From: a virus
Length of the DNA: 41,688 nucleotides
UHGV virus genome: UHGV-0112358
Strand: one strand, 5' to 3'
Each line of letters begins with the position of its first letter. Within the stretch, counting starts at the first letter, position 1. The position numbers were made by a program, and so were the translations under genes. Below, in pieces: positions 2,893 through 38,280 of the stretch. The notes beneath the pieces were generated by a model. That model ran no database searches and was not told the DNA's origin. It saw nothing but the letters and a program-made list of their open reading frames with translations.

Positions 2893-3408
2893 TTAAATTG
2901 CGTGAATAGCGTGACGAGGGAAGGGGAGAGTTACTGGTGCAAAGGGGATGTCGTCGTCAAAATCCATAGGTGGTTCGCTGTGATTTCCCTGCTGCTGAGG
3001 TTGCTGTCTTTGTTGCTGACCATTATTTCGCTGAGGTGAAGACTGTTCATTGCCTCCTTGCTTGCCACCAAGCATTTGCATGGTTCCACCAACGCCCACG
3101 ATGACTTCGGTAGTGAACCGATCCTGTCCGCTTTGATCCTGCCATTTTCTTGTCCGCAATTTGCCTTCAAGATAAACCTCAGAGCCTTTTCGCAGATATT
3201 CGCTGGCAATTTCTGCCAGTTTCCCGCTCATTACCACGCGGTGCCACTCCGTCTGCTCCTTTTGCTCTCCAGTTTGCTTATCACGCCATTGTTCTGACGT
3301 AGCAACGGTAAGGTTTGCAAATGCCGTTCCTGATGGTGAATATCTGATTTCTGGATCATGCCCAAGGCGACCAATAATGATCACCTTATTTACGCCTCTG
3401 CTTGCCAT
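2893..3408 (-). CDS. ssb: single-stranded DNA-binding protein
   Basis: N-terminal OB-fold sequence [20 protein letters not shown]..., Gly/Gln-rich linker, acidic tail DFDDDIPF. Confidence 0.9.
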
Positions 3409-23969: not shown

Positions 23970-24449
23970 ATGAGTGGCTTTCAAAGTGTAATTAATCAGC
24001 AACAGGCGCCGGGAGTTGAGGGCGATTTCGCTTCGGCTAACCCTAAAGCAAGTCTTCTTGCAGGTGAGGGAGCTCTTGTTGCCGGTGCAAATGGGGTTGT
24101 TGTTGGTCGCTTTGCATGGGTAAGCAATGGTGTTGTCAATAACACTGGAACCGGTGCTCCTGCCGGTTTCGTTCATCGGGAAGGGCAGGCGTCTGTCACC
24201 ACATGGCTTGGTGAGTCATCTATGACTATTCAGCCTGGAGTTCAGATGACATTGATGACTGCTGGTGACTACTGGGTGAAAACGGCCGGTGCGGCAACCG
24301 TAGGGCAGAAGATTTTCGCCAAACTGTCAGATGGAACTATTACCGCCGGCGATGCCGGGGCGTCAATCTCGGATTACGTTGAAACAAAATTTGTTGTTGG
24401 CAGTGCTGGCGAGGCTGGCGAGTTGATTCAGATGGGCACCTGGAGCTAA
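23970..24449 (+). CDS. Gly/Ala-rich head protein (putative decoration protein)
   Basis: 159 aa with SD, immediately upstream of major capsid gene. Confidence 0.45.
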   Translation: MSGFQSVINQQQAPGVEGDFASANPKASLLAGEGALVAGANGVVVGRFAWVSNGVVNNTGTGAPAGFVHREGQASVTTWLGESSMTIQPGVQMTLMTAGDYWVKTAGAATVGQKIFAKLSDGTITAGDAGASISDYVETKFVVGSAGEAGELIQMGTWS

Positions 24450-27080: not shown

Positions 27081-27592
27081 ATGATTTCACTGTCGATAAT
27101 ATTATCGATGTACTTGCTGGCTACATAGAACCTATCGCTGGTAAATGCCTGCAGGCTCAGGCTAACCGTGTACCAATGCCCAAGGATCAGTTCTGCATCC
27201 TGACCCCTTTGCGATTCACCAGACTATCCACGACGAGAGAGCTTAAGCAAGATACCGGCTCTCCGGACACAAGCGCCATGGGATATACGGAAGTCCGCCA
27301 GGCTGATATTCAGGTAGATATCTATGGTCAGGGGGCTGGGGATAGAGCTATTGCACTGGAAACAACATTCACCAGTGGATATGGCTACGACATCATCAAG
27401 GCTATTGATGCACGTCTTGCACCGCTTTACTCATCTCCTGTCATTCAGGCGCCGATGATCAACGCCGAGAGTCAGTGGCAGGAGCGTTACACGTTAACTC
27501 TTTCCCTGCAAGCACACATCACCGTGTCGTTCCAGCAGGACTATTTCGACAAAGCAGAAATTTCAACTGAACAGGTGGATAACCGCCCATGA
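27077..27592 (+). CDS. putative tail-associated protein
   Basis: ATG overlaps upstream stop; track ORF starts 27032. Confidence 0.45.
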   Translation: MNDFTVDNIIDVLAGYIEPIAGKCLQAQANRVPMPKDQFCILTPLRFTRLSTTRELKQDTGSPDTSAMGYTEVRQADIQVDIYGQGAGDRAIALETTFTSGYGYDIIKAIDARLAPLYSSPVIQAPMINAESQWQERYTLTLSLQAHITVSFQQDYFDKAEISTEQVDNRP

Positions 27593-29090: not shown

Positions 29091-29525
29091 ATGCCTATCG
29101 ATATTACCTCGGCAAACAGTAAGCTGCGAATCGTCGTACCCGCTTACTACCCTGGCGGTTTTGATGTTGACGACTACGCAGCTGATAACATGTTTGAAAC
29201 TGGTGCGTTACAGAACAAAGAAGACATGATGTCAGCGGACGGTAAATACCATGCTGGTTTTATCTTTAACCCGACAGAGTTCACCATCAACCTGATGCCC
29301 ACATCCAATGCTGGCTCGCTGATTGATGACTGGTATGCAGCGGAGAGAACCGCAATTTCAGCGTTTCAGTGTAATGCGGTGCTTACAGTTCCGGCTCTCG
29401 GCGCGAAGTGGAATTTTGTGAACGGGGTTCTTTATACATGGACTCCAACCCCTCCGGGTCGGCGCGTACTGCAACCACGCCCGGCAGTATTTCACTTTGA
29501 GTCTGTAACACGGAGCACTATCTGA
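29091..29525 (+). CDS. tail tube protein
   Basis: 144 aa directly after sheath, SD TAAGGGA. Confidence 0.6.
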   Translation: MPIDITSANSKLRIVVPAYYPGGFDVDDYAADNMFETGALQNKEDMMSADGKYHAGFIFNPTEFTINLMPTSNAGSLIDDWYAAERTAISAFQCNAVLTVPALGAKWNFVNGVLYTWTPTPPGRRVLQPRPAVFHFESVTRSTI

Positions 29526-29932
29526 TGGCACGTAAAGAAATCTCCTTTATCGTGGAAGACGATAATCGCGACAATGGGAAGGAGTTCATTATCACAGAGA
29601 TGTCGGCATGGGATGCCGACGAACTGGCACAGGATTTATTCCGCTCCATGGGGGAATCGGGATTCTCTGGTATTCCTGCTGATGTGATTGCCATGGGGTG
29701 TGCTGGCCTTGCCACCCTTGGTCTGAATGTTATTTCTGCTGCATCGCCGGAAGTCGCCAGAAAACTTCGTGATCGCCTGATGTCAACTGTGCAAATTGTG
29801 ATTACACACGAAGGCAGCAGACAGGTGCGAACCGTGAAGCCTGTCGACTTTGAAGAGGTATCAACCATTCGTCAGGTAATGGATAAGGTATTTAAAGTCA
29901 ATTTTGATTTTTTAACGATCGCCGGAGAGTGA
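29525..29932 (+). CDS. tail assembly chaperone (G-like)
   Basis: 135-aa acidic protein before tape measure; slippery TTTTTTA near 3' end. Confidence 0.65.
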   Translation: MARKEISFIVEDDNRDNGKEFIITEMSAWDADELAQDLFRSMGESGFSGIPADVIAMGCAGLATLGLNVISAASPEVARKLRDRLMSTVQIVITHEGSRQVRTVKPVDFEEVSTIRQVMDKVFKVNFDFLTIAGE

Positions 29933-30147
29933 AGTACCCGTTCATGGAGGAGGAGACTCTTCCGGCAAAACTCGTTAGCCCCGTAAACGTCACACCATCA
30001 ATGAACGCCATTATCTGTTCAGGAAAAGCCACTTATACCGATTTGCAGGAAAGGTTATCTGTTCGTGATATGTATAACCTTCTGGAAATTATCTCGGTGG
30101 AATCATTTAACAAGCGGGTCTGGAATAAACATCAGGAGCAGCGATGA
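29929..30147 (+). CDS. tail chaperone -1 frameshift extension (T-like)
   Basis: Frame is -1 relative to chaperone and open from slippery site 29908-29914; no independent RBS. Confidence 0.55.
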   Translation: MKYPFMEEETLPAKLVSPVNVTPSMNAIICSGKATYTDLQERLSVRDMYNLLEIISVESFNKRVWNKHQEQR

Positions 30148-31919
30148 TTATCAATGAGTTGGCCTACAAGGTCACAATTAAGGCCGATGAATTCCTGAAT
30201 GGAAAACGGAAAGTAAAGCAGGAAGCACAAGACCTTAAAAACGAAATAGAGAGATCTTCATCTGCGATAGAAAGGTCAACAACCTCCTCGATGTCCAAAA
30301 CGGCTAAGGAGACCGACAAAGCTGCTGTTGCAATGAAAGGGTTGACTGCTTCATTTAATGGTTTTTTGGGGCTTTCGACACGCTTTGTGGCTGTTGGCGG
30401 TGTGTTGACTGCCGTAGCCATTGGCATTCATCGTGCATTTGAAAGTACTTCGGAGTCAATTGTAAGAGCCAGTAATATGGGGAGAATGCTTGGAACAAGC
30501 GCCAGTAACGTTCTTGGTACTCAGTATGGATTCTCCCGAATTGGTCAGAACGGCGGCGCGTTCCTTGGGGCACAGATGAGCGCCAGGATGGCGCTTGCCA
30601 ATATAGAAGACCCAACAATTTTCGGCGGACTTACACCGGAGGCTCAGAATTTACTAACAACTGGAGCGAGAACAGGCATTGATATTAGTAAGCTTGGAGG
30701 TAAATCAGAAGATGCTCTGGCGGAATTTCAGAAATATGGGAAGAACCATAACGAGAAACAGTTAATGCAAGTGCTTTCTGCTTTTGGTTATGACCCTAAT
30801 CTTGCCGGGGATATTAAAAGCGGAAAAGCTGTGCAGATGGTATCTGAGGAAGAAAAACGATGGCAGATGACCAAAGAGCAGGAAGAAGCACAGCGCAACA
30901 TTCTTGCTACGACTAAAGCCCTTGACTCGCAATTTGCTCAGGTTAAACAAGAATTAATGGCTACATTTGGCCCTGAAGTGCTTAAAGCTGAACAGGAGTT
31001 TTTAGAGTGGCTGAAAAACAACAAGGGTGACATTGTTGGGTTCTTCAGGAACCTGAGTACAGGTATTGATGGTTTTGTTAAAGCCGTTGGTGGCGCTGGA
31101 AACGCATTGGGCATTCTTGCTGCCATGGCTCTTCTTAGCGGCAAGGGGTTAGGAAGCAAGCTGGGATTAATCGGTGCTGTTGGTATTTTTGGGCAGATGG
31201 TACAAGACCAGTATAAAGATGTTCCTGATGAGATGCGGCCATTCGCATTTCAGCAGCATTGGCTTGAAAGGCTCATTGGGCTGGATTATGACGATCCAAA
31301 TAAAGAGATTCCTCCTAACAAAAATGGTGTCAACAGGCCTGACAGAAACAATAACCCATTAAATCTTAAAGCTACTGGAAACAGAAGAAGAGACAAAGAC
31401 GGATTTGCTCAATACTTCGACCCAGAAGAGGGTTGGGAGGCCGCCAGGAATCAACTGACTCTATACTACAAAAGAGATAAGCTTGATACGTTGCAAGGAA
31501 TAATAAGCAAGTGGGCACCATCCTCAGAAAACAACACAAAGGCGTATATTGACCAGGTTTCTAAGTCTATGGGCGTTGGTGCCAATGATAAGCTAAACCT
31601 CTCAGATCCAGAGGTTATGGCAAAACTTAGCGCCTATATGGCTAGGCATGAAGGTTATCCAGATTGGAAGCGGGGTCTTGATTATGGTAACCCAACGAAA
31701 AATAGCAATGCCGCTTACTACCAAACTCAGCAAAGATTGGCTAATGGATCTGCAAATCAATCCTATACCCAAAGCGTTGTTAACAATTACAACAGCCAGC
31801 ACATAGGAGAGGTAAAGGTAATTGCCAAAACGGATCAATCCTCAAAACTAACCGAAGGATTTAAGGAGTTGAATCGCAGATCATCAGTAAATCAGGCATT
31901 TTCAAGTGCAGTGCCTTAG
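30144..31919 (+). CDS. tail tape measure protein
   Basis: 591 aa with hydrophobic and Gly-rich segments, follows chaperone pair. Confidence 0.65.
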   Translation: MIINELAYKVTIKADEFLNGKRKVKQEAQDLKNEIERSSSAIERSTTSSMSKTAKETDKAAVAMKGLTASFNGFLGLSTRFVAVGGVLTAVAIGIHRAFESTSESIVRASNMGRMLGTSASNVLGTQYGFSRIGQNGGAFLGAQMSARMALANIEDPTIFGGLTPEAQNLLTTGARTGIDISKLGGKSEDALAEFQKYGKNHNEKQLMQVLSAFGYDPNLAGDIKSGKAVQMVSEEEKRWQMTKEQEEAQRNILATTKALDSQFAQVKQELMATFGPEVLKAEQEFLEWLKNNKGDIVGFFRNLSTGIDGFVKAVGGAGNALGILAAMALLSGKGLGSKLGLIGAVGIFGQMVQDQYKDVPDEMRPFAFQQHWLERLIGLDYDDPNKEIPPNKNGVNRPDRNNNPLNLKATGNRRRDKDGFAQYFDPEEGWEAARNQLTLYYKRDKLDTLQGIISKWAPSSENNTKAYIDQVSKSMGVGANDKLNLSDPEVMAKLSAYMARHEGYPDWKRGLDYGNPTKNSNAAYYQTQQRLANGSANQSYTQSVVNNYNSQHIGEVKVIAKTDQSSKLTEGFKELNRRSSVNQAFSSAVP

Positions 31920-31927
31920 CAGATTTG

Positions 31928-32386
31928 CTATTGACTAATTTCCCGCATGAATGCAATTGTTTTTGCCATTTTCTCAGAGTGATCAATTGTCTCAACGAGA
32001 AATTTTCGCGCGGGAGATTGCTCATTCTCGCCTCGGAATGTGGCGTTAATGTTTTGCATTGCTGCATTTTTCCACATGCTTACTTCTTCTATGGATTGCG
32101 ATAATGATGCTGAAGATGCAGCGTCAAAGCATATACCATACGATGAATCTCGTATATCTGACGGTGACTTGCCAATAGCACTAAGTTGATTTCCATACTT
32201 TTTTACCATGTCGTTAGCCATATCCTGACAAACTTCATCAATGCTTTTGCCCATGCCTGCAACATAAGGAGAAGCATCTTTTATTAAAGACATCATTTTT
32301 TCCTTATCTTTGTCGGATGCAGCATAAGCTGCGAGTGATAGAAGAACGGAAGAAAATATTGCTATTGTGAAAAATCTGGATTTCAT
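31928..32386 (-). CDS. secreted/periplasmic protein of unknown function (moron)
   Basis: Signal peptide MKSRFFTIAIFSSVLLSLAAYAASD; SD AGGGGAAAGA; opposite strand to tail genes. Confidence 0.6.
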   Translation of the reverse strand: MKSRFFTIAIFSSVLLSLAAYAASDKDKEKMMSLIKDASPYVAGMGKSIDEVCQDMANDMVKKYGNQLSAIGKSPSDIRDSSYGICFDAASSASLSQSIEEVSMWKNAAMQNINATFRGENEQSPARKFLVETIDHSEKMAKTIAFMREISQ

Positions 32387-32502
32387 TCTTTCCCCTTGTA
32401 ACGTTTCCTATGTTTGTATCCGTTAACTTAAGCAAAAGCACGCAACACTCGGTTTTACGCAGGATACCAGATGATACTGTGTAGTTGGAGTAGTGCGGTT
32501 GC

Positions 32503-32594
32503 AATGCAAGCATTTTGCTTTTGTTTTATGCTTGCTTGTATGTGGGTACAGTGCATATAATGCAAGCATATATCACAGCAAAGGTGCTTGCATT
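32503..32594. promoter_or_regulatory. operator array (4 copies of AATGCAAGCAT) over a consensus promoter
   Basis: Copies at 32503-32514, 32528-32535, 32559-32570, 32585-32594 in alternating orientation; -35 TTGCTT (32532-32537), -10 TATAAT (32556-32561). Confidence 0.5.
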
Positions 32595-33587
32595 ATGACT
32601 GAAAAGAAAAGTGGTGAAGGGAAAGCTAAGGGCGGAATCGCTCGCGCAAAGTCGCTGACTAAAGAGCAGCGTTCTGAAATAGCAAAGAAAGCAGCGGCTG
32701 CAAGATGGAAGGATAAACCATTAATTGCTACGCATAAGGGATCGTTCCAGCATGAATTCGGGATTGATGTTGAGTGCTATGTGTTAAATGATGATAACAA
32801 AACTGCCGTTATTAGCCAGAGAGGCATGGGAGAAGCGATTGGTCTTGGCGAAGGTGGCAGCAGGTTGCCAAAGTTTATTCAGGGGAAAACTATTTCTCAG
32901 TATATCGGGCATGAATTAAGGGCAAAACTTGAAAATCCTCTTATTTTTCAATACAAACAGGTGGGCACGAACACACCAGCTAACCCTGTAATACATGGCT
33001 ACGATGTAACAATCTTAATTGATTTATGTCGAGCAATCTCTAACGCTAAAGCTGAAGGTAAGTTGCTTTCTAGTCAGGAAGGGATTGCTAAGCAAGCCAG
33101 GATAATTATTGATGCATCAGCCAAGGCGGGAATTCAGGGGCTTGTTTATGCTTTGGCAGGGTATGACAGAACAAAAGAAGAAGTAATTCAAGCATATAAG
33201 CGATATGTTGCTGAAGAGGCTCGTGAGTATGAAAGAGAGTTCACCCCTGAACTTTATGAGCATTGGTATCGTCTGTATGGTATAGACAAACCAGTTAGAG
33301 GGCGACCGTGGGCGTTTAAATATCTTACGATAGATCACATTTACTACCCATTAGCCAGAAGTGAAGGAAAGGTATTTAATTTAGCAAAAACGTCAAAAGA
33401 AGAGAAAGGCAGCAAAAACGATAAAATACACCAGTTTTTATCAGAGGTTGGAGTTAAAGCTCTTAGAACCCAAATAGGTAAGGTTACTGGTATTGCAATG
33501 GTTTCTGATACTCGAGAAGAGTATGAGAAATACATAGATGAAAAGGTTATTGGACAAAGAACCATCGACTTAAAAGATAAAGAATAA
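32595..33587 (+). CDS. KGG-motif / P63C-like protein of unknown function
   Basis: ATG 32595 after SD; N-terminus GKAKGGIARAKSLTKEQRSEIAKKAAAARW; track ORF starts upstream at 32493. Confidence 0.55.
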   Translation: MTEKKSGEGKAKGGIARAKSLTKEQRSEIAKKAAAARWKDKPLIATHKGSFQHEFGIDVECYVLNDDNKTAVISQRGMGEAIGLGEGGSRLPKFIQGKTISQYIGHELRAKLENPLIFQYKQVGTNTPANPVIHGYDVTILIDLCRAISNAKAEGKLLSSQEGIAKQARIIIDASAKAGIQGLVYALAGYDRTKEEVIQAYKRYVAEEAREYEREFTPELYEHWYRLYGIDKPVRGRPWAFKYLTIDHIYYPLARSEGKVFNLAKTSKEEKGSKNDKIHQFLSEVGVKALRTQIGKVTGIAMVSDTREEYEKYIDEKVIGQRTIDLKDKE

Positions 33588-33616
33588 GAAAAACCCACCG
33601 TCAGGTGGGTTTTTTG
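33588..33616. terminator. bidirectional terminator between convergent genes
   Basis: A-run, ACCCACC-gtca-GGTGGGT, T-run. Confidence 0.6.
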
Positions 33617-33921
33617 TTTAGCAGTTCTCTTAACTTTTCGTTTTGCTCTCTGAACTTTTCCTGTATTTCTTTTTGCATGGCGATAACCTGGGCTTGAAGT
33701 TGAACTAGCGCATCAACATTTAGCGGAACCGAGACGCTGTTGATTTTGTCTGCTATTTCCCCAAGAGTATTTTCTGCATTCAAGGCATCTTCCAGTATCT
33801 GCACAATCTCTGAGTTCATTGATCTGCCGTTACGTTTAGCTCGTTCAGCTATAGCATCTCGCATTCCGTCAGGAAAACGGAGGTTGAACTTGTCGTAGTC
33901 TTTTACTTGTTTTTCGGCCAT
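33601..33921 (-). CDS. mnt: Mnt/Arc-type ribbon-helix-helix repressor
   Basis: KFNLRFPDGMRDAIAERAKRNGRSMNSEIVQ RHH motif; divergent from arc-ant pair; track ORF extends to 33960. Confidence 0.6.
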   Translation of the reverse strand: MAEKQVKDYDKFNLRFPDGMRDAIAERAKRNGRSMNSEIVQILEDALNAENTLGEIADKINSVSVPLNVDALVQLQAQVIAMQKEIQEKFREQNEKLRELLNKKPT

Positions 33922-33939
33922 TGCAAATCTCTCAAAAAA

Positions 33940-34012
33940 ACCATGGTGCCATATTGCCATACGATTTCAATGGTGGCATTATGGCCTTCATGGCGTCACT
34001 TTGGCACCAAAT
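33940..34012. promoter_or_regulatory. divergent promoter/operator region of immI-like switch
   Basis: Inverted half-sites GGTGCCA / TGGCACC repeated between the mnt-like and arc-like starts. Confidence 0.4.
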
Positions 34013-34027
34013 AAAGGAGATTAGATA

Positions 34028-34201
34028 ATGCAAGATACACTTTTCACTGAGCGCAAAAATATCAAACTCAACCTTCGCCTTCCATCACGGCTGAATGAAG
34101 ACCTTCGCCGCCTGGCGGAAATGGACTGTATATCTCTGAACTCTGCAATTGTTCGTTTGCTGGCAAAAGGTGTTAGGGAAGAGGTGGCGAATGGTCGCTA
34201 A
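34028..34201 (+). CDS. arc: Arc-like ribbon-helix-helix repressor (57 aa)
   Basis: [36 protein letters not shown] motif; SD AAAGGAG; below track cutoff. Confidence 0.6.
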
Positions 34202-35207
34202 AAACAGCGAAGCCCCAATGGCTGCAACCATTGAGGCTTCTAAATTACCAGTTAACTACGAGAAAACTGATATGAATAGTATAGCAATTTTAGAAGCAGT
34301 GAACACCTCTTACGTACCCTTCAACGGTCAGCAAATTATCACCGCCATGGCTGCAGGAGTTGCATATGTTGCGATGAAGCCAATCGTTGAAAACCTCGGA
34401 ATGAGCTGGGGTACTCAGCAACAAAAACTTATGAAACAACTAGATAAGTTCAACTGTATTCATATGAATATGGTTGCTGCTGATGGGAAGCTTCGTAAGC
34501 TACTCTGCCTTCCTTTGAAGAAGTTAAATGGATGGCTGTTCAGCATCAACCCTGAGAAAGTTCGTGCTGACATCCGCGATAAACTGATTCAGTACCAGGA
34601 AGAATGCTTTACTGTGCTGCATGACTACTGGACTAAAGGCCATGTGGTTAACCCGCGCAAAGCTAAAAAGGCGTTGCCGGGCAAAATCACCACTGAACAG
34701 CAGGAAGCCATTAAACAACTTGTCATGAGTCGCGGTCAGTCTCTGCCAAAAGAAAAACAGGCGAAGGCGATGATCACCATGTGGTCGTCACTGAAATCCC
34801 ATTTTGGATGTTCGTACAAAGAAATCAGTGAGGAGCAGTTTACCGAAGCACTGTCACTTGCAGCTCGAGTTCCACTTGAAGGTGAGTTCATTAGCAAACA
34901 AGAGAAGAGCACCAACGAGCTTTCCGCAAAAGAAGCAAACAGCCTTGTATGGTTATGGGATTATGCCAACCGCTCACAGGCATTATTCCGCGAACTGTAT
35001 CCGGCATTAAAACAAATTCAATCGAACTATTCCGGCAGATGCTACGACTACGGTCATGAGTTCTCGTATGTTATCGGAACGGCGAGAGACGTTTTAATCA
35101 ACCACACACGAGATGTTGATATCAATGAGCCAGACGGACCAACAAATCTTTCTGCATGGATAAGGCTTAAGAATAAAGAATTACCGCCTTCTGTTCATCT
35201 GTATTAA
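34191..35207 (+). CDS. ant: antirepressor (Ant-like, AntA N-terminal domain)
   Basis: [23 protein letters not shown]... resembles recalled P22 Ant; ATG 34191 with SD GAGGTGG overlapping arc end. Confidence 0.65.
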
Positions 35208-35291
35208 TGACGCATCTGGTGGTGAAAAAAAACCGCCAGTGTGCAGCTGGCGGCCTATGTCACACCCTTACTACCACATAAGGAATGCCTA

Positions 35292-36020
35292 ATGACTTTT
35301 AAGAATGTAGCAAACATCGGATCCGTTGTCACGGATAAAACCATTGATAGCCAGTACCTGTTAGAGATGGTCAATCATGCTCGTAGACAGTGCGGGGAAA
35401 AAGAAGTCCGCAATAACGACTTTATTGCACGCATTAAGGATGAACTTGAAGGTGAGCACTACGAAATTTTCGTAGTTCAAAAATCAAACAAGACAACTTC
35501 TGAAAAAGTTGTTATGTCAATTAAGCAAGCCCTTCGAGTGGCTGCTCGTGAATCTAAAGCTGTTCGCCGCTCACTTGTAGACCAACTTGAAAGTATGCAA
35601 GAAGCGCACATTAAAAGCGGTAAATCGTCTAGTGGACTTGTTGAGTATCGCCAGGCGCGAACATTGAAAATGACGGTTGAAGCTGTTACCAATCTGTTCG
35701 ATTTGATGCCAAATCTTGCGCCGGAAGCAAAGCAGACTGCGGCAGCAAGCATAATCAACCCGATCGTTGGTTTTAATGCAATACCTCTTCCAGCAATAGA
35801 AGAGCATTACTACTCAGCAGGGGAGGTTGCAGAGCAGCTTGGAGTAACGGCCAACAAGATTGGTCGCATTGCTAACGCAAACAACCTCAAAACTGAGCAG
35901 TACGGGAAGTTCTTCCTGGATAAATCTGCGCATTCCAGCAAACAGGTGGAAGCATTCCGCTACAATGCGGAAGGTGTTAAAGCACTACAACACCTGGTTC
36001 ATGGGAGTAATGTTGCATAA
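35292..36020 (+). CDS. hypothetical DNA-binding protein (possible antirepressor-like)
   Basis: ATG 35292 with SD AAGGA; HTH-like segment near C-terminus; track ORF starts 35241. Confidence 0.45.
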   Translation: MTFKNVANIGSVVTDKTIDSQYLLEMVNHARRQCGEKEVRNNDFIARIKDELEGEHYEIFVVQKSNKTTSEKVVMSIKQALRVAARESKAVRRSLVDQLESMQEAHIKSGKSSSGLVEYRQARTLKMTVEAVTNLFDLMPNLAPEAKQTAAASIINPIVGFNAIPLPAIEEHYYSAGEVAEQLGVTANKIGRIANANNLKTEQYGKFFLDKSAHSSKQVEAFRYNAEGVKALQHLVHGSNVA

Positions 36021-36291: not shown

Positions 36292-37107
36292 ATGAGCATA
36301 ATCGATTTAAACACAGCAGACATATTCAATGCTATCGGTGGTGGCTCTCCGCTTTCGATCATCGACAGCGTTCTGCATCCCCAGTATGTGATTCGTGACA
36401 GGGAAACTGGCGAGGTTGCTCTTGAGTTCAGTGGTATGGCATCCGTACAGCCAAGCGGAAGGGCGCAAATAACAAATGCTCCGGTGGAGAAAGGGAAATA
36501 CCAGTCCATCAACAAAGTTAAAGAACCAGCCAGAGTAAGATGCGCAATCATCGTAAATGGTCTTACTGGTTTTTCCGGCAATATCCCGAATATTTTCGAT
36601 CTCACATTCACAAGCCAGAACAGCACGCTGAACACAATCAAAACGATGCTGTCCTCTGCAAAAACATACGATATTGAAACGCCAAAGGAAACTCTGGAGA
36701 GTTTCGACCTTGTTGACCACTATTACGAAGTTAACTCTCAAAAAGGGGTGACTCTTCTGACGGTTTATCTTGATTTTCAGGAGGTCATTCAGCAAATGGA
36801 GGTTATCCTCTCTGGATCTCAGTCAGAACAGAAGCCAACGGATAACAATAAGTCACAGGGAGATGTAGGAGTTGATCCGCAAATAACCAATGGCGGAGCC
36901 AGGGAATCTACTGTCGATGAGCTAAGTAAATCATGGTCATCACTGAAGTCATCTGTTGGCGACATCACTGGAAAAATCTCCGACACAATCAAGACTGAAT
37001 TTCAGAGTGCTCTTGATACGGTGTCCAAACCAATACTCGAAGTTACAAACAGCGCAACAAAAAAAGCGGCAGATATTGCAAAAAATATAGTTAAGGCGAG
37101 CACATGA
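36292..37107 (+). CDS. putative baseplate/tail protein
   Basis: 271-aa ORF with SD GGAGAG resuming tail gene block. Confidence 0.5.
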   Translation: MSIIDLNTADIFNAIGGGSPLSIIDSVLHPQYVIRDRETGEVALEFSGMASVQPSGRAQITNAPVEKGKYQSINKVKEPARVRCAIIVNGLTGFSGNIPNIFDLTFTSQNSTLNTIKTMLSSAKTYDIETPKETLESFDLVDHYYEVNSQKGVTLLTVYLDFQEVIQQMEVILSGSQSEQKPTDNNKSQGDVGVDPQITNGGARESTVDELSKSWSSLKSSVGDITGKISDTIKTEFQSALDTVSKPILEVTNSATKKAADIAKNIVKAST

Positions 37108-37406
37108 TTACAGTATCTGTTCTTCCCAGCAAATCTCAGTCCATTTCGGTAAGTCTGGCTGGTCAGCAATGTAATATAAAACTTGTTCAGCGACAGAGTT
37201 TTATGTACATGGATTTAACTGTTAATGAAGTCCCAATTATGCAGGGCGTTCCATGCCTGTATGGGAATAAGATGGTAAGATATTCCTACCTTGGATTTAA
37301 GGGAGACCTTATTTTCATTGATAACGATGGGGAGTCGGACCCGCAATGGGAAGGCTTGGGTGGCCGTTACTTGCTGTATTACATTGAGGAAAACGAGCTT
37401 GTATAA
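37104..37406 (+). CDS. hypothetical tail protein
   Basis: 100-aa ORF, ATG overlaps upstream stop. Confidence 0.45.
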   Translation: MITVSVLPSKSQSISVSLAGQQCNIKLVQRQSFMYMDLTVNEVPIMQGVPCLYGNKMVRYSYLGFKGDLIFIDNDGESDPQWEGLGGRYLLYYIEENELV

Positions 37407-37417
37407 AAATCACAGTC

Positions 37418-38280
37418 TTCGGTTTGACTTCACGAATGAATCATCAGCATTTGATAAAAATGGAAACAATAAAATCTCCATCAGAAATGTTAAGTCAACA
37501 GTATCCCTGAACTTTGTTACCGGTCGGGGAGGTGCTCAGGCTGATATATCTCTTTACGGCTTAGGAATTGAAAGACTTGCTGATATATCAGGGAAGGCTG
37601 ATGGTATTGTTGGGGAAGGTCAGAAGTTAAATGTTGAGGTATTTGCTGATGATTCTCTTGTTTTCTCCGGCACGATGCTTTCATCAATAGCAAACATGAA
37701 TTCTGCTCCTGAAAGCAGTTTGATGATAACAGCCTCTTCTAATGTTGATTTACAGAACATGCCAGCAAGTCCGTTTACAGCGCAGGGTGCGCAAAGTGTT
37801 GAAGATGTCATCTCATCCATTTGTGCAAGTGCAGGTTATGAGGCTGTGTTTAATAATGTAAAAGGGATGACAACATCAGGAAGTCCGCATTTTGAAGGAA
37901 GTGTTTTTGAACAACTTTATAGGGTCTGTTCAGATTATGGACTTGCGATGTCAGCCACGCCACCGACAAAAGTAGAGTTCTGGCCTTCAGAAAAAAACAG
38001 AGACGATGTAATTCCGTTTATATCCAGAGAATACGGACTTGTTGGATATCCTGTATTTTCAAATGGGGGACTGATGTTTCAGTCGCAATATTCATCTCTC
38101 CTTTGCATTGGAAGATATGTGGATATCAAAACAGAACTACCACATGCAAGCGGAAGGTATAAGTTAACCTCCGTTCGGCATGAATTATCATCATGGATGC
38201 CAAATGGTTCATGGCACTCAATATGTATTGCCGCCAGAACAGCGGAACAAAGAGCAGAGGCGCAACAGAATAATGGATAA
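37418..38280 (+). CDS. putative baseplate hub protein (Mu gpP-like); start uncertain
   Basis: Track ORF 37291..38280 overlaps previous gene by 116 nt; TTG at 37418 preceded by GAGGA is the first start after upstream stop. Confidence 0.45.

Follow-up and report, generated by a model that had tools for sequence, protein, structure and literature searches.

The two short open reading frames (ORFs) that precede the tape-measure gene of virus genome UHGV-0112358 raise the question of whether they encode two separate proteins or are joined by a programmed -1 ribosomal frameshift. The window, meaning the whole stretch of 41,688 nucleotides (nt) that was analysed, is an E. coli myovirus-type prophage, and the region is 98.5–99.4% identical to prophages in 20/5,426 complete E. 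coli genomes. A near-identity DNA search of the phage collection with the locus returned no match; it was placed by way of E. coli genomes and by searching phages at the protein level. An earlier note on this DNA had taken the two ORFs for the conserved frameshifted chaperone pair that stands before the tape-measure gene in tailed phages, and gene order, homology and comparative evidence support that assignment. Judged from sequence, the first ORF (ORF1) and the ORF in the -1 frame (ORF2) very probably make up a tail assembly chaperone pair, as G and T respectively, with a -1 frameshift at the heptamer T_TTT_TTA. Frameshifting of this G/GT type is widely conserved in long-tailed double-stranded DNA phages (Levin et al. 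1993; Xu et al. 2004; reviewed in PMC5009743).

A slippery heptamer conserved at the nucleotide level

ORF1 lies on the plus strand at 29525–29932, from an ATG at 29525 to a TGA at 29930–29932, and encodes a putative 'G'-type tail assembly chaperone of 135 amino acids (aa). The earlier note had placed TTTTTTA at 29908–29914, six codons before the chaperone stop, with the downstream ORF open in the -1 frame from that point. The sequence bears out all three statements. The ORF1 frame reads GA[T TTT TTA] ACG ATC GCC GGA GAG TGA, which places the heptamer in the X_XXY_YYZ phase, its UUA codon (29912–29914) is six codons before the TGA, and the -1 frame is open from 29908 to a TGA at 30145–30147 (ORF2, the putative 'T' segment, plus strand, 29908–30147, 79 codons). 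After a shift, -1 translation from 29914 covers 77 codons to that TGA. The predicted trans-frame fusion, 'GT', spans 29525–30147 on the plus strand and would consist of ORF1 residues 1–130 followed by the -1 frame, 207 aa altogether. Another -1 frame TGA, at 29905–29907, abuts the 5' side of the heptamer. Because this stop and the ORF1 stop bound the overlap, a shift that joins both ORFs is possible only within eight codons, and the heptamer occupies the start of this interval. The idea that the stop at 29905–29907 is itself a designed feature was dropped, as it is not conserved and the -1 frame of relatives is open for up to 154 codons upstream.

A heptamer and a -1 ORF might coincide by chance, in which case ORF2 would be non-functional or an unrelated small ORF and no recoding would take place. 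The bare motif lends itself to this explanation, since TTTTTTA occurs 14 times in the window versus 11.7 expected from shuffles, an enrichment that is not significant, and the stem-loop downstream (below) is statistically weak. The case for a frameshift site rests on phase, position and conservation, not on motif enrichment. The plausible genes of the window contain 28 in-phase X_XXY_YYZ heptamers per 8,761 codons, a rate that gives a chance of about 0.025 of finding one in a given eight-codon interval. Furthermore, the heptamer at 29908 has the longest -1 read-through of all 28, 79 codons versus 56 for the next. The latter, A_AAA_AAC at 37992–37998, is in phase in a 329-aa ORF (37291–38280), and its 56-codon -1 ORF is probably due to chance.

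Relatives were collected by a scan of viral contigs (IMG/VR), which gave 65 loci with ORF1 66–100% identical to that of the window. The end of ORF1 is included in 64 of them. The heptamer is in phase in 64/64 complete loci, as TTTTTTA in 63 and TTTTTTG in one, and in all 64 the -1 frame is open from the heptamer to the tape-measure start. The codons on either side differ among relatives, both before the heptamer (AAT TTT GAT, AAC TTC GAT, AAT TTC TCT) and after it (ACG ATC, ACC ATC, TCA ATC, GCA GTA).

Codon columns were then compared across the 61 distinct sequences among these relatives. The Phe codon of the heptamer is TTT in 61/61 and the Leu codon is TTA in 60/61. The codon that precedes this TTT ends in T in 61/61, being GAT, AAT, TCT, GGT or AGT and never GAC. 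Elsewhere in ORF1 the same amino acids are encoded freely. Five other invariant Phe columns have TTT/TTC ratios of 16/45, 6/55, 36/25, 35/26 and 24/37, conserved Leu columns use five to six codons with CTG dominant and TTA in at most 4/61, and conserved Asp columns mix GAT and GAC. Because the heptamer columns are frozen while the other Phe, Leu and Asp columns vary, selection acts at the nucleotide level. The silent T at 29908 is useless in frame 0, and the -1 frame is unread upstream of the shift, so only re-pairing of the P-site tRNA-Phe with UUU explains it.

Clearly, chance does not account for these results. The 64/64 conservation with its internal synonymous-site control, the coding signature and PHROG family of ORF2, and the same architecture in relatives at 27–36% identity (both described below) make a fortuitous heptamer barely credible, and the comparative data effectively refute it.

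The -1 frame, its homologues and its gene order

Sequence diversity along the -1 ORF was examined beyond the overlap. The values at the three codon positions are 0.21/0.12/0.46, a clear coding pattern in the -1 frame. ORF2 matches PHROG 3976, a family of unknown function (E=1e-15). Relatives keep the -1 peptide FFN(D/H)R(R/S)RV(K)YPF right from the slip site, which is ahead of any codon that could serve as a start.

ORF2, a coding sequence (CDS), might instead be translated alone, as a 67-aa protein from the ATG at 29944, by weak direct initiation or by termination and reinitiation after ORF1, with no frameshift. In every matching E. coli genome PGAP lists the pair as separate CDS, the ATG sits 12 nt past the ORF1 stop, and 33/61 distinct relatives have, within the -1 ORF, an ATG at codon 13 and/or a GTG at codon 8. 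The initiation signals themselves argue otherwise. The earlier note had stated that ORF2 has no ribosome binding site of its own, which is nearly right: there is no well-spaced site, but a GGAG does exist at 29924–29927. This sole Shine-Dalgarno-like element is 1 nt from a GTG at 29929 and 16 nt from the ATG at 29944, and is badly spaced for both. Neither start is conserved. The GTG position is GTA in most relatives, and the ATG position is ATT, ATC, CTT, CTC or TTA in many. No ATG, GTG or TTG occurs before codon 22 in 28/61 distinct relatives, and in 14/61 there is none before codon 46 of about 79, yet the full-length conserved ORF is retained. Independent translation also fails to explain why the -1 frame keeps the peptide FFNxRRRVKYPF ahead of the ATG, why the heptamer and the silent third-position T of the preceding codon are frozen, and why single-ORF homologues cross the junction. 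We therefore consider separate translation of ORF2, as a replacement for frameshifting, unlikely.

ORF1 matches PHROG 1932, 'tail assembly chaperone', with E=1e-51, a label that may itself rest on gene position. In BFVD, the predicted viral structures that best match an AF2 (AlphaFold) model of ORF1 (pLDDT 75) are named as chaperones of tail assembly or of the tape measure (E 1.7e-5 to 1e-4, TM about 0.6). The conceptual fusion, whose predicted junction reads ...KVNFDF(L/F)NDRRRVKYPF..., aligns contiguously with the single-ORF families phrog_18181 and phrog_4774, over 170 and 177 positions respectively. A protein search with the fusion also identified P0015, a 210-aa single-ORF homologue with 52% identity and 100% coverage. 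Its junction, NFSFFFNRRRVEYPF, matches the predicted fusion junction, NFDFFNDRRRVKYPF.

To place this homologue, P0015 was searched against 1.84 billion representatives, which gave 240 proteins at E<=0.001. Among the 150 of these that were listed, nearly all ORF1-type matches stop at query residues ~132–136, which is the junction, and T-type matches are separate proteins of 56–91 aa. The only other full-length single-ORF match that spans the junction among them is P0234 (210 aa). Two separate ORFs are the rule.

The DNA that encodes P0015 has a run of nine T in place of the T6 heptamer (3394–3402 of relative L071, ENA ERZ28575314 scaffold_1438), and this fuses G and T in one frame. With T8 instead of T9, the zero frame of L071 would end like ORF1 of relative L056. 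The fusion in L071 is either a homopolymer error of the assembly or a real one-base variant. If the lineage is real, free G would need transcriptional slippage.

The gene order around the pair is sheath, tube, ORF1, -1 ORF2 and tape-measure/lytic tail protein, all on the plus strand. The tail sheath gene (DUF3383, E217 gp31-like) at 27589–29079 matches Pfam PF11863 with E=1e-106 and PHROG 205 'tail sheath', and the tail tube gene (E217 gp32-like) at 29091–29525, directly 5' of ORF1, matches Pfam PF22764 with E=5.5e-17. A neck terminator gene (PF23961) also lies upstream of the pair, along with the sheath and tube genes. Downstream is the 591-aa tape-measure or lytic tail protein gene at 30144–31919 (PHROG 873, 2013 and 2276). 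The genes are tightly packed. The ORF1 ATG and the tube gene stop overlap as TGATG, and the -1 ORF stop and the tape-measure ATG overlap as ATGA (30144–30147), a junction kept in most relatives. The order tube, ORF1, ORF2 and tape measure also occurs in phages Edno5, PA-1, AsaM-56 and phiAC-1.

Phages whose ORF1 is only 27–36% identical to that of the window share the layout: their T ORF is in the -1 frame, and the position homologous to the slip site, ...L(H/N)(L/F)(D/G)F, carries a U-rich heptamer. The heptamer is T_TTT_TTC in Pantoea PA-1 and Pseudomonas Amjad_SA, T_TTT_TTA in Acinetobacter phiAC-1, as it is in Vibrio IKEMa6-1, G_GGT_TTT in Aeromonas vB_AsaM-56 and Burkholderia PE067, and G_GGT_TTT_TTA in Acetobacter phiAO1. 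The -1 peptides of the distant phages are mutually related, for example GFFRNWRRVDWP and RFFHRRRRLDIP. Klebsiella phage ST15-VIM1phi2.1 (L070 2501–3198) has a -1 T ORF and no canonical heptamer at the homologous position, where only GCT TTT GTA is found. This sequence would permit at best a one-tRNA U_UUU slip. In the same phage a Rha-family regulator gene is inserted between the tube and chaperone genes.

The same fusion could in principle arise before translation, if RNA polymerase stuttered on the T6 run and produced mRNAs one base short or two bases long. The site is a homopolymer run, and L071, with T9 at this place, encodes a single-frame fusion. Runs of nine T are known to support polymerase slippage (reviewed in PMC5009743). 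Bacterial RNA polymerase usually needs a run of about eight to nine or more for productive slippage, and the run of six in the window is short by that standard. The distant G_GGT_TTT and T_TTT_TTC sites fit tandem tRNA slippage and are poorer homopolymers. Also, relatives keep an A or a G behind the run, so that the A-site codon is UUA or UUG; this suits tRNA re-pairing, not polymerase stuttering. Transcriptional slippage as the source of the fusion is thus very unlikely.

Proposed expression of G and GT

Ribosomal frameshifting would proceed as follows. Most ribosomes would terminate at the ORF1 TGA, and their product would be the 135-aa chaperone. A minority would instead slip one base backward on U_UUU_UUA, with the P-site tRNA-Phe re-pairing from UUU to UUU and the A-site tRNA-Leu moving from UUA to UUU. 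Alternatively, the P-site tRNA may slip before the rare UUA codon is filled. By the codon-column comparison UUA is rare in the ORF1 genes of relatives. In E. coli a minor tRNA decodes it, which could make ribosomes pause there. Shifted ribosomes would continue through 77 further -1 codons and stop at the TGA that overlaps the tape-measure ATG, yielding the 207-aa fusion. If the proteins work as gpG and gpGT do in lambda, the part common to both (G) would coat the tape-measure protein and the T extension would recruit the tube protein. A low, fixed G:GT ratio, by the same analogy, would be set by the efficiency of the frameshift.

What is known of the heptamer agrees with such a ratio. In E. 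coli, U_UUU_UUA is known to shift modestly, and less readily than A_AAA_AAG (PMC5009743). Its modest shiftiness fits the low ratio needed in lambda, where G:GT is about 30:1 (PMC5009743). An identical heptamer is the HIV-1 gag-pol slip site; since that system is eukaryotic and has another stimulator, the likeness is mechanistic only. In the protein made at the HIV-1 site, the residue encoded at the shift can be either Leu or Phe (PMC5009743), so the junction here is predicted to read ...FDF(L/F)ND....

The RNA downstream of the heptamer was examined for a stimulatory stem-loop, which the earlier note had named as a check, and the result was mixed. A candidate hairpin stands at 6-nt spacing and can be formed by most relatives, but its support is weak and one clade has no stem. 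The hairpin (29921–29966, plus strand) begins 6 nt past the heptamer and consists of 10 base pairs with a 1-nt bulge, its arms being 29921–29930 and 29956–29966. Folded alone (local 50 nt) it has a minimum free energy of -18.8 kcal/mol (z=-1.98), and 4/200 shuffles are as stable, which is marginal. Among 31 distinct sequences, pairs form in 82% of cells, versus 28–51% for slid partners. One pair covaries from A-U to G-C with the bulged base moving along, from GGAGAG/CUCU-U-CC to GAAGGG/CCCUU-C-C. RNAalifold found no family-wide consensus structure in the 31 sequences, and an Rfam search with the downstream RNA gave no match. These data weakly indicate that the hairpin is a candidate stimulator. 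A dnaX-type stimulator, that is, an upstream internal Shine-Dalgarno sequence, was rejected, as the only element found, AAGG about 21 nt upstream, is badly placed.

Several points weigh against a frameshifted chaperone pair at this locus and temper its assignment. The GT fusion is a predicted product, and because U_UUU_UUA is less shifty than A_AAA_AAG its yield may be only a few per cent. The 61 relatives share a phylogeny, so the conservation counts are of non-independent events. ORF1 scores 20.2 bits against Pfam family PF21822 (Phage_TAC_15), below the 22-bit gathering cut-off. A PDB sequence search and a PDB fold search with ORF1 gave no meaningful match, and its chaperone fold is therefore not tied to a solved structure. 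The ATG at 29944, so close behind the ORF1 stop, may allow a 67-aa T-only protein to be made to some extent, by independent initiation or by reinitiation. As for the hairpin, a 76-nt fold (z=-0.40) and a 181-nt fold are no more stable than shuffles, the stem-loop is absent in the Edwardsiella GF-2-like clade, and both arms are protein-coding, which confounds the covariation.

Lambda makes its gpG and gpGT chaperones by a -1 frameshift at G_GGA_AAG (Levin, Hendrix & Casjens 1993; Xu, Hendrix & Duda 2004, 2013, 2014; reviewed in PMC5009743), and the window resembles it in arrangement. Both have two overlapping ORFs between the major tail or tube gene and the tape-measure gene, a second ORF in the -1 frame with no conserved start of its own, and an X_XXY_YYZ heptamer a few codons before the first stop. 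Lambda makes, and the window is predicted to make, a short chaperone and a C-terminally extended fusion. In contrast, no sequence similarity to lambda G or T could be detected, the window uses U_UUU_UUA as its heptamer, and its tail is contractile, the sheath and tube being of the E217/PB1 type. A downstream stem-loop is possible in the window, whereas the lambda site is not known to depend on downstream structure.

Among myoviruses the pair resembles P2 E / E+E' and other analogues, in which a -1 frameshifted pair precedes the tape-measure gene of a contractile-tailed phage (Christie et al.; Xu et al. 2004, cited in PMC5009743). The P2 proteins belong to different families, and no homology to them was detected. 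The frameshift efficiency reported for P2 is 2–3 fold above that of lambda (PMC5009743).

The nearest sequenced phages are Edwardsiella GF-2 and Edno5 (Gofduovirus; gp16 + gp17) and Vibrio IKEMa6-1, which are 60–65% identical over the whole predicted fusion and share both the gene order of the window and its in-phase T_TTT_TTA. The GF-2/Edno5-like clade differs in having an extra in-phase A_AAT_TTC 9 nt upstream of T_TTT_TTA and no 6-nt-spaced stem-loop. The second heptamer is found at L068 2884–2899 and in L051, L058–L062 and L067.

These differences raise the rather doubtful possibility that lineages of one chaperone family tune the G:GT ratio in their own ways: the enterobacterial clade with U_UUU_UUA and a 6-nt-spaced stem-loop kept up by compensatory changes, the GF-2-like phages with a second heptamer and no stem-loop, and L071 with T9. 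In that case L071 could yield free G only by transcriptional or +1/-2 slippage, reversing the usual logic. If such tuning were real, the family would offer a compact natural series in which to study what sets the efficiency of a frameshift.

Annotation and neighbouring genes

The locus is an unannotated case of the well-known lambda G/GT class. RefSeq lists ORF1 and a 67-aa ORF2 from the ATG at 29944 as separate hypothetical proteins, with no slippage. GF-2 and Edno5 are treated alike in GenBank and RefSeq, where the two ORFs are listed apart, gp17 is truncated to 48 aa, and no slippage is annotated. The same split into unrelated hypothetical proteins occurs in 20/5,426 complete E. coli genomes, in many Citrobacter, Cronobacter, Enterobacter, Salmonella and Yersinia matches, and in phages Edno5, GF-2, PA-1, vB_AsaM-56 and phiAC-1, with ORF2 cut at an arbitrary start in some records. 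No joined CDS was found among the database records examined for related phages, and literature searches found no paper that describes a chaperone frameshift in GF-2, Edno5 or E217-like phages.

The main value of the locus lies in its annotation. If the two ORFs were entered as one joined CDS with ribosomal slippage, records would show the correct 207-aa product, and PHROG 3976, now of unknown function, could be named the T segment of the chaperone. The site would also serve training sets for frameshift predictors, as a well-conserved example of U_UUU_UUA with an internal synonymous-site control. It leaves the concepts of phage tail assembly unchanged.

Annotation of PE067 (L072 1–1499) looks wrong at two other genes. 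GenBank names the sheath homologue 'cobalamin biosynthesis protein' and the tube homologue 'two-component system response regulator UvrY'.

Directly after the chaperone pair the prophages diverge. Of the 21 E. coli records that match, at least 10 and probably as many as 16 align with the query only to ~30217, and past this point they carry a different tape-measure allele of 1818 nt with a 'transglycosylase SLT domain'. Because the match ends there, a recombination breakpoint is placed just inside the tape-measure gene. In the top full-length match, NZ_CP148427, the tape-measure gene is 1695 nt long versus 1776 nt in the window.

An accessory, immunity-like island lies between the tape-measure and baseplate genes (31928–36020). 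It contains a minus-strand 152-aa ORF with a signal-peptide-like N-terminus, a gene for a P63C-domain protein, Arc-family repressor genes at 33601–33960 (minus strand) and 34028–34201 (plus strand), and a P22-type antirepressor gene at 34149–35207. The island resembles P22 immI, yet it is embedded in the tail module, and related prophages hold other cargo at this place. Beyond it are the baseplate genes, with a Dit-like gene at 36292–37107 and a Pam3 gp18-like plug gene at 37104–37406. Upstream, the gene for 'structural cement protein Gp24' is intact in the window (23970–24449), and PGAP calls it a frameshifted pseudogene in the nearest E. coli prophage, that of NZ_CP148427 (L001 850–1328).

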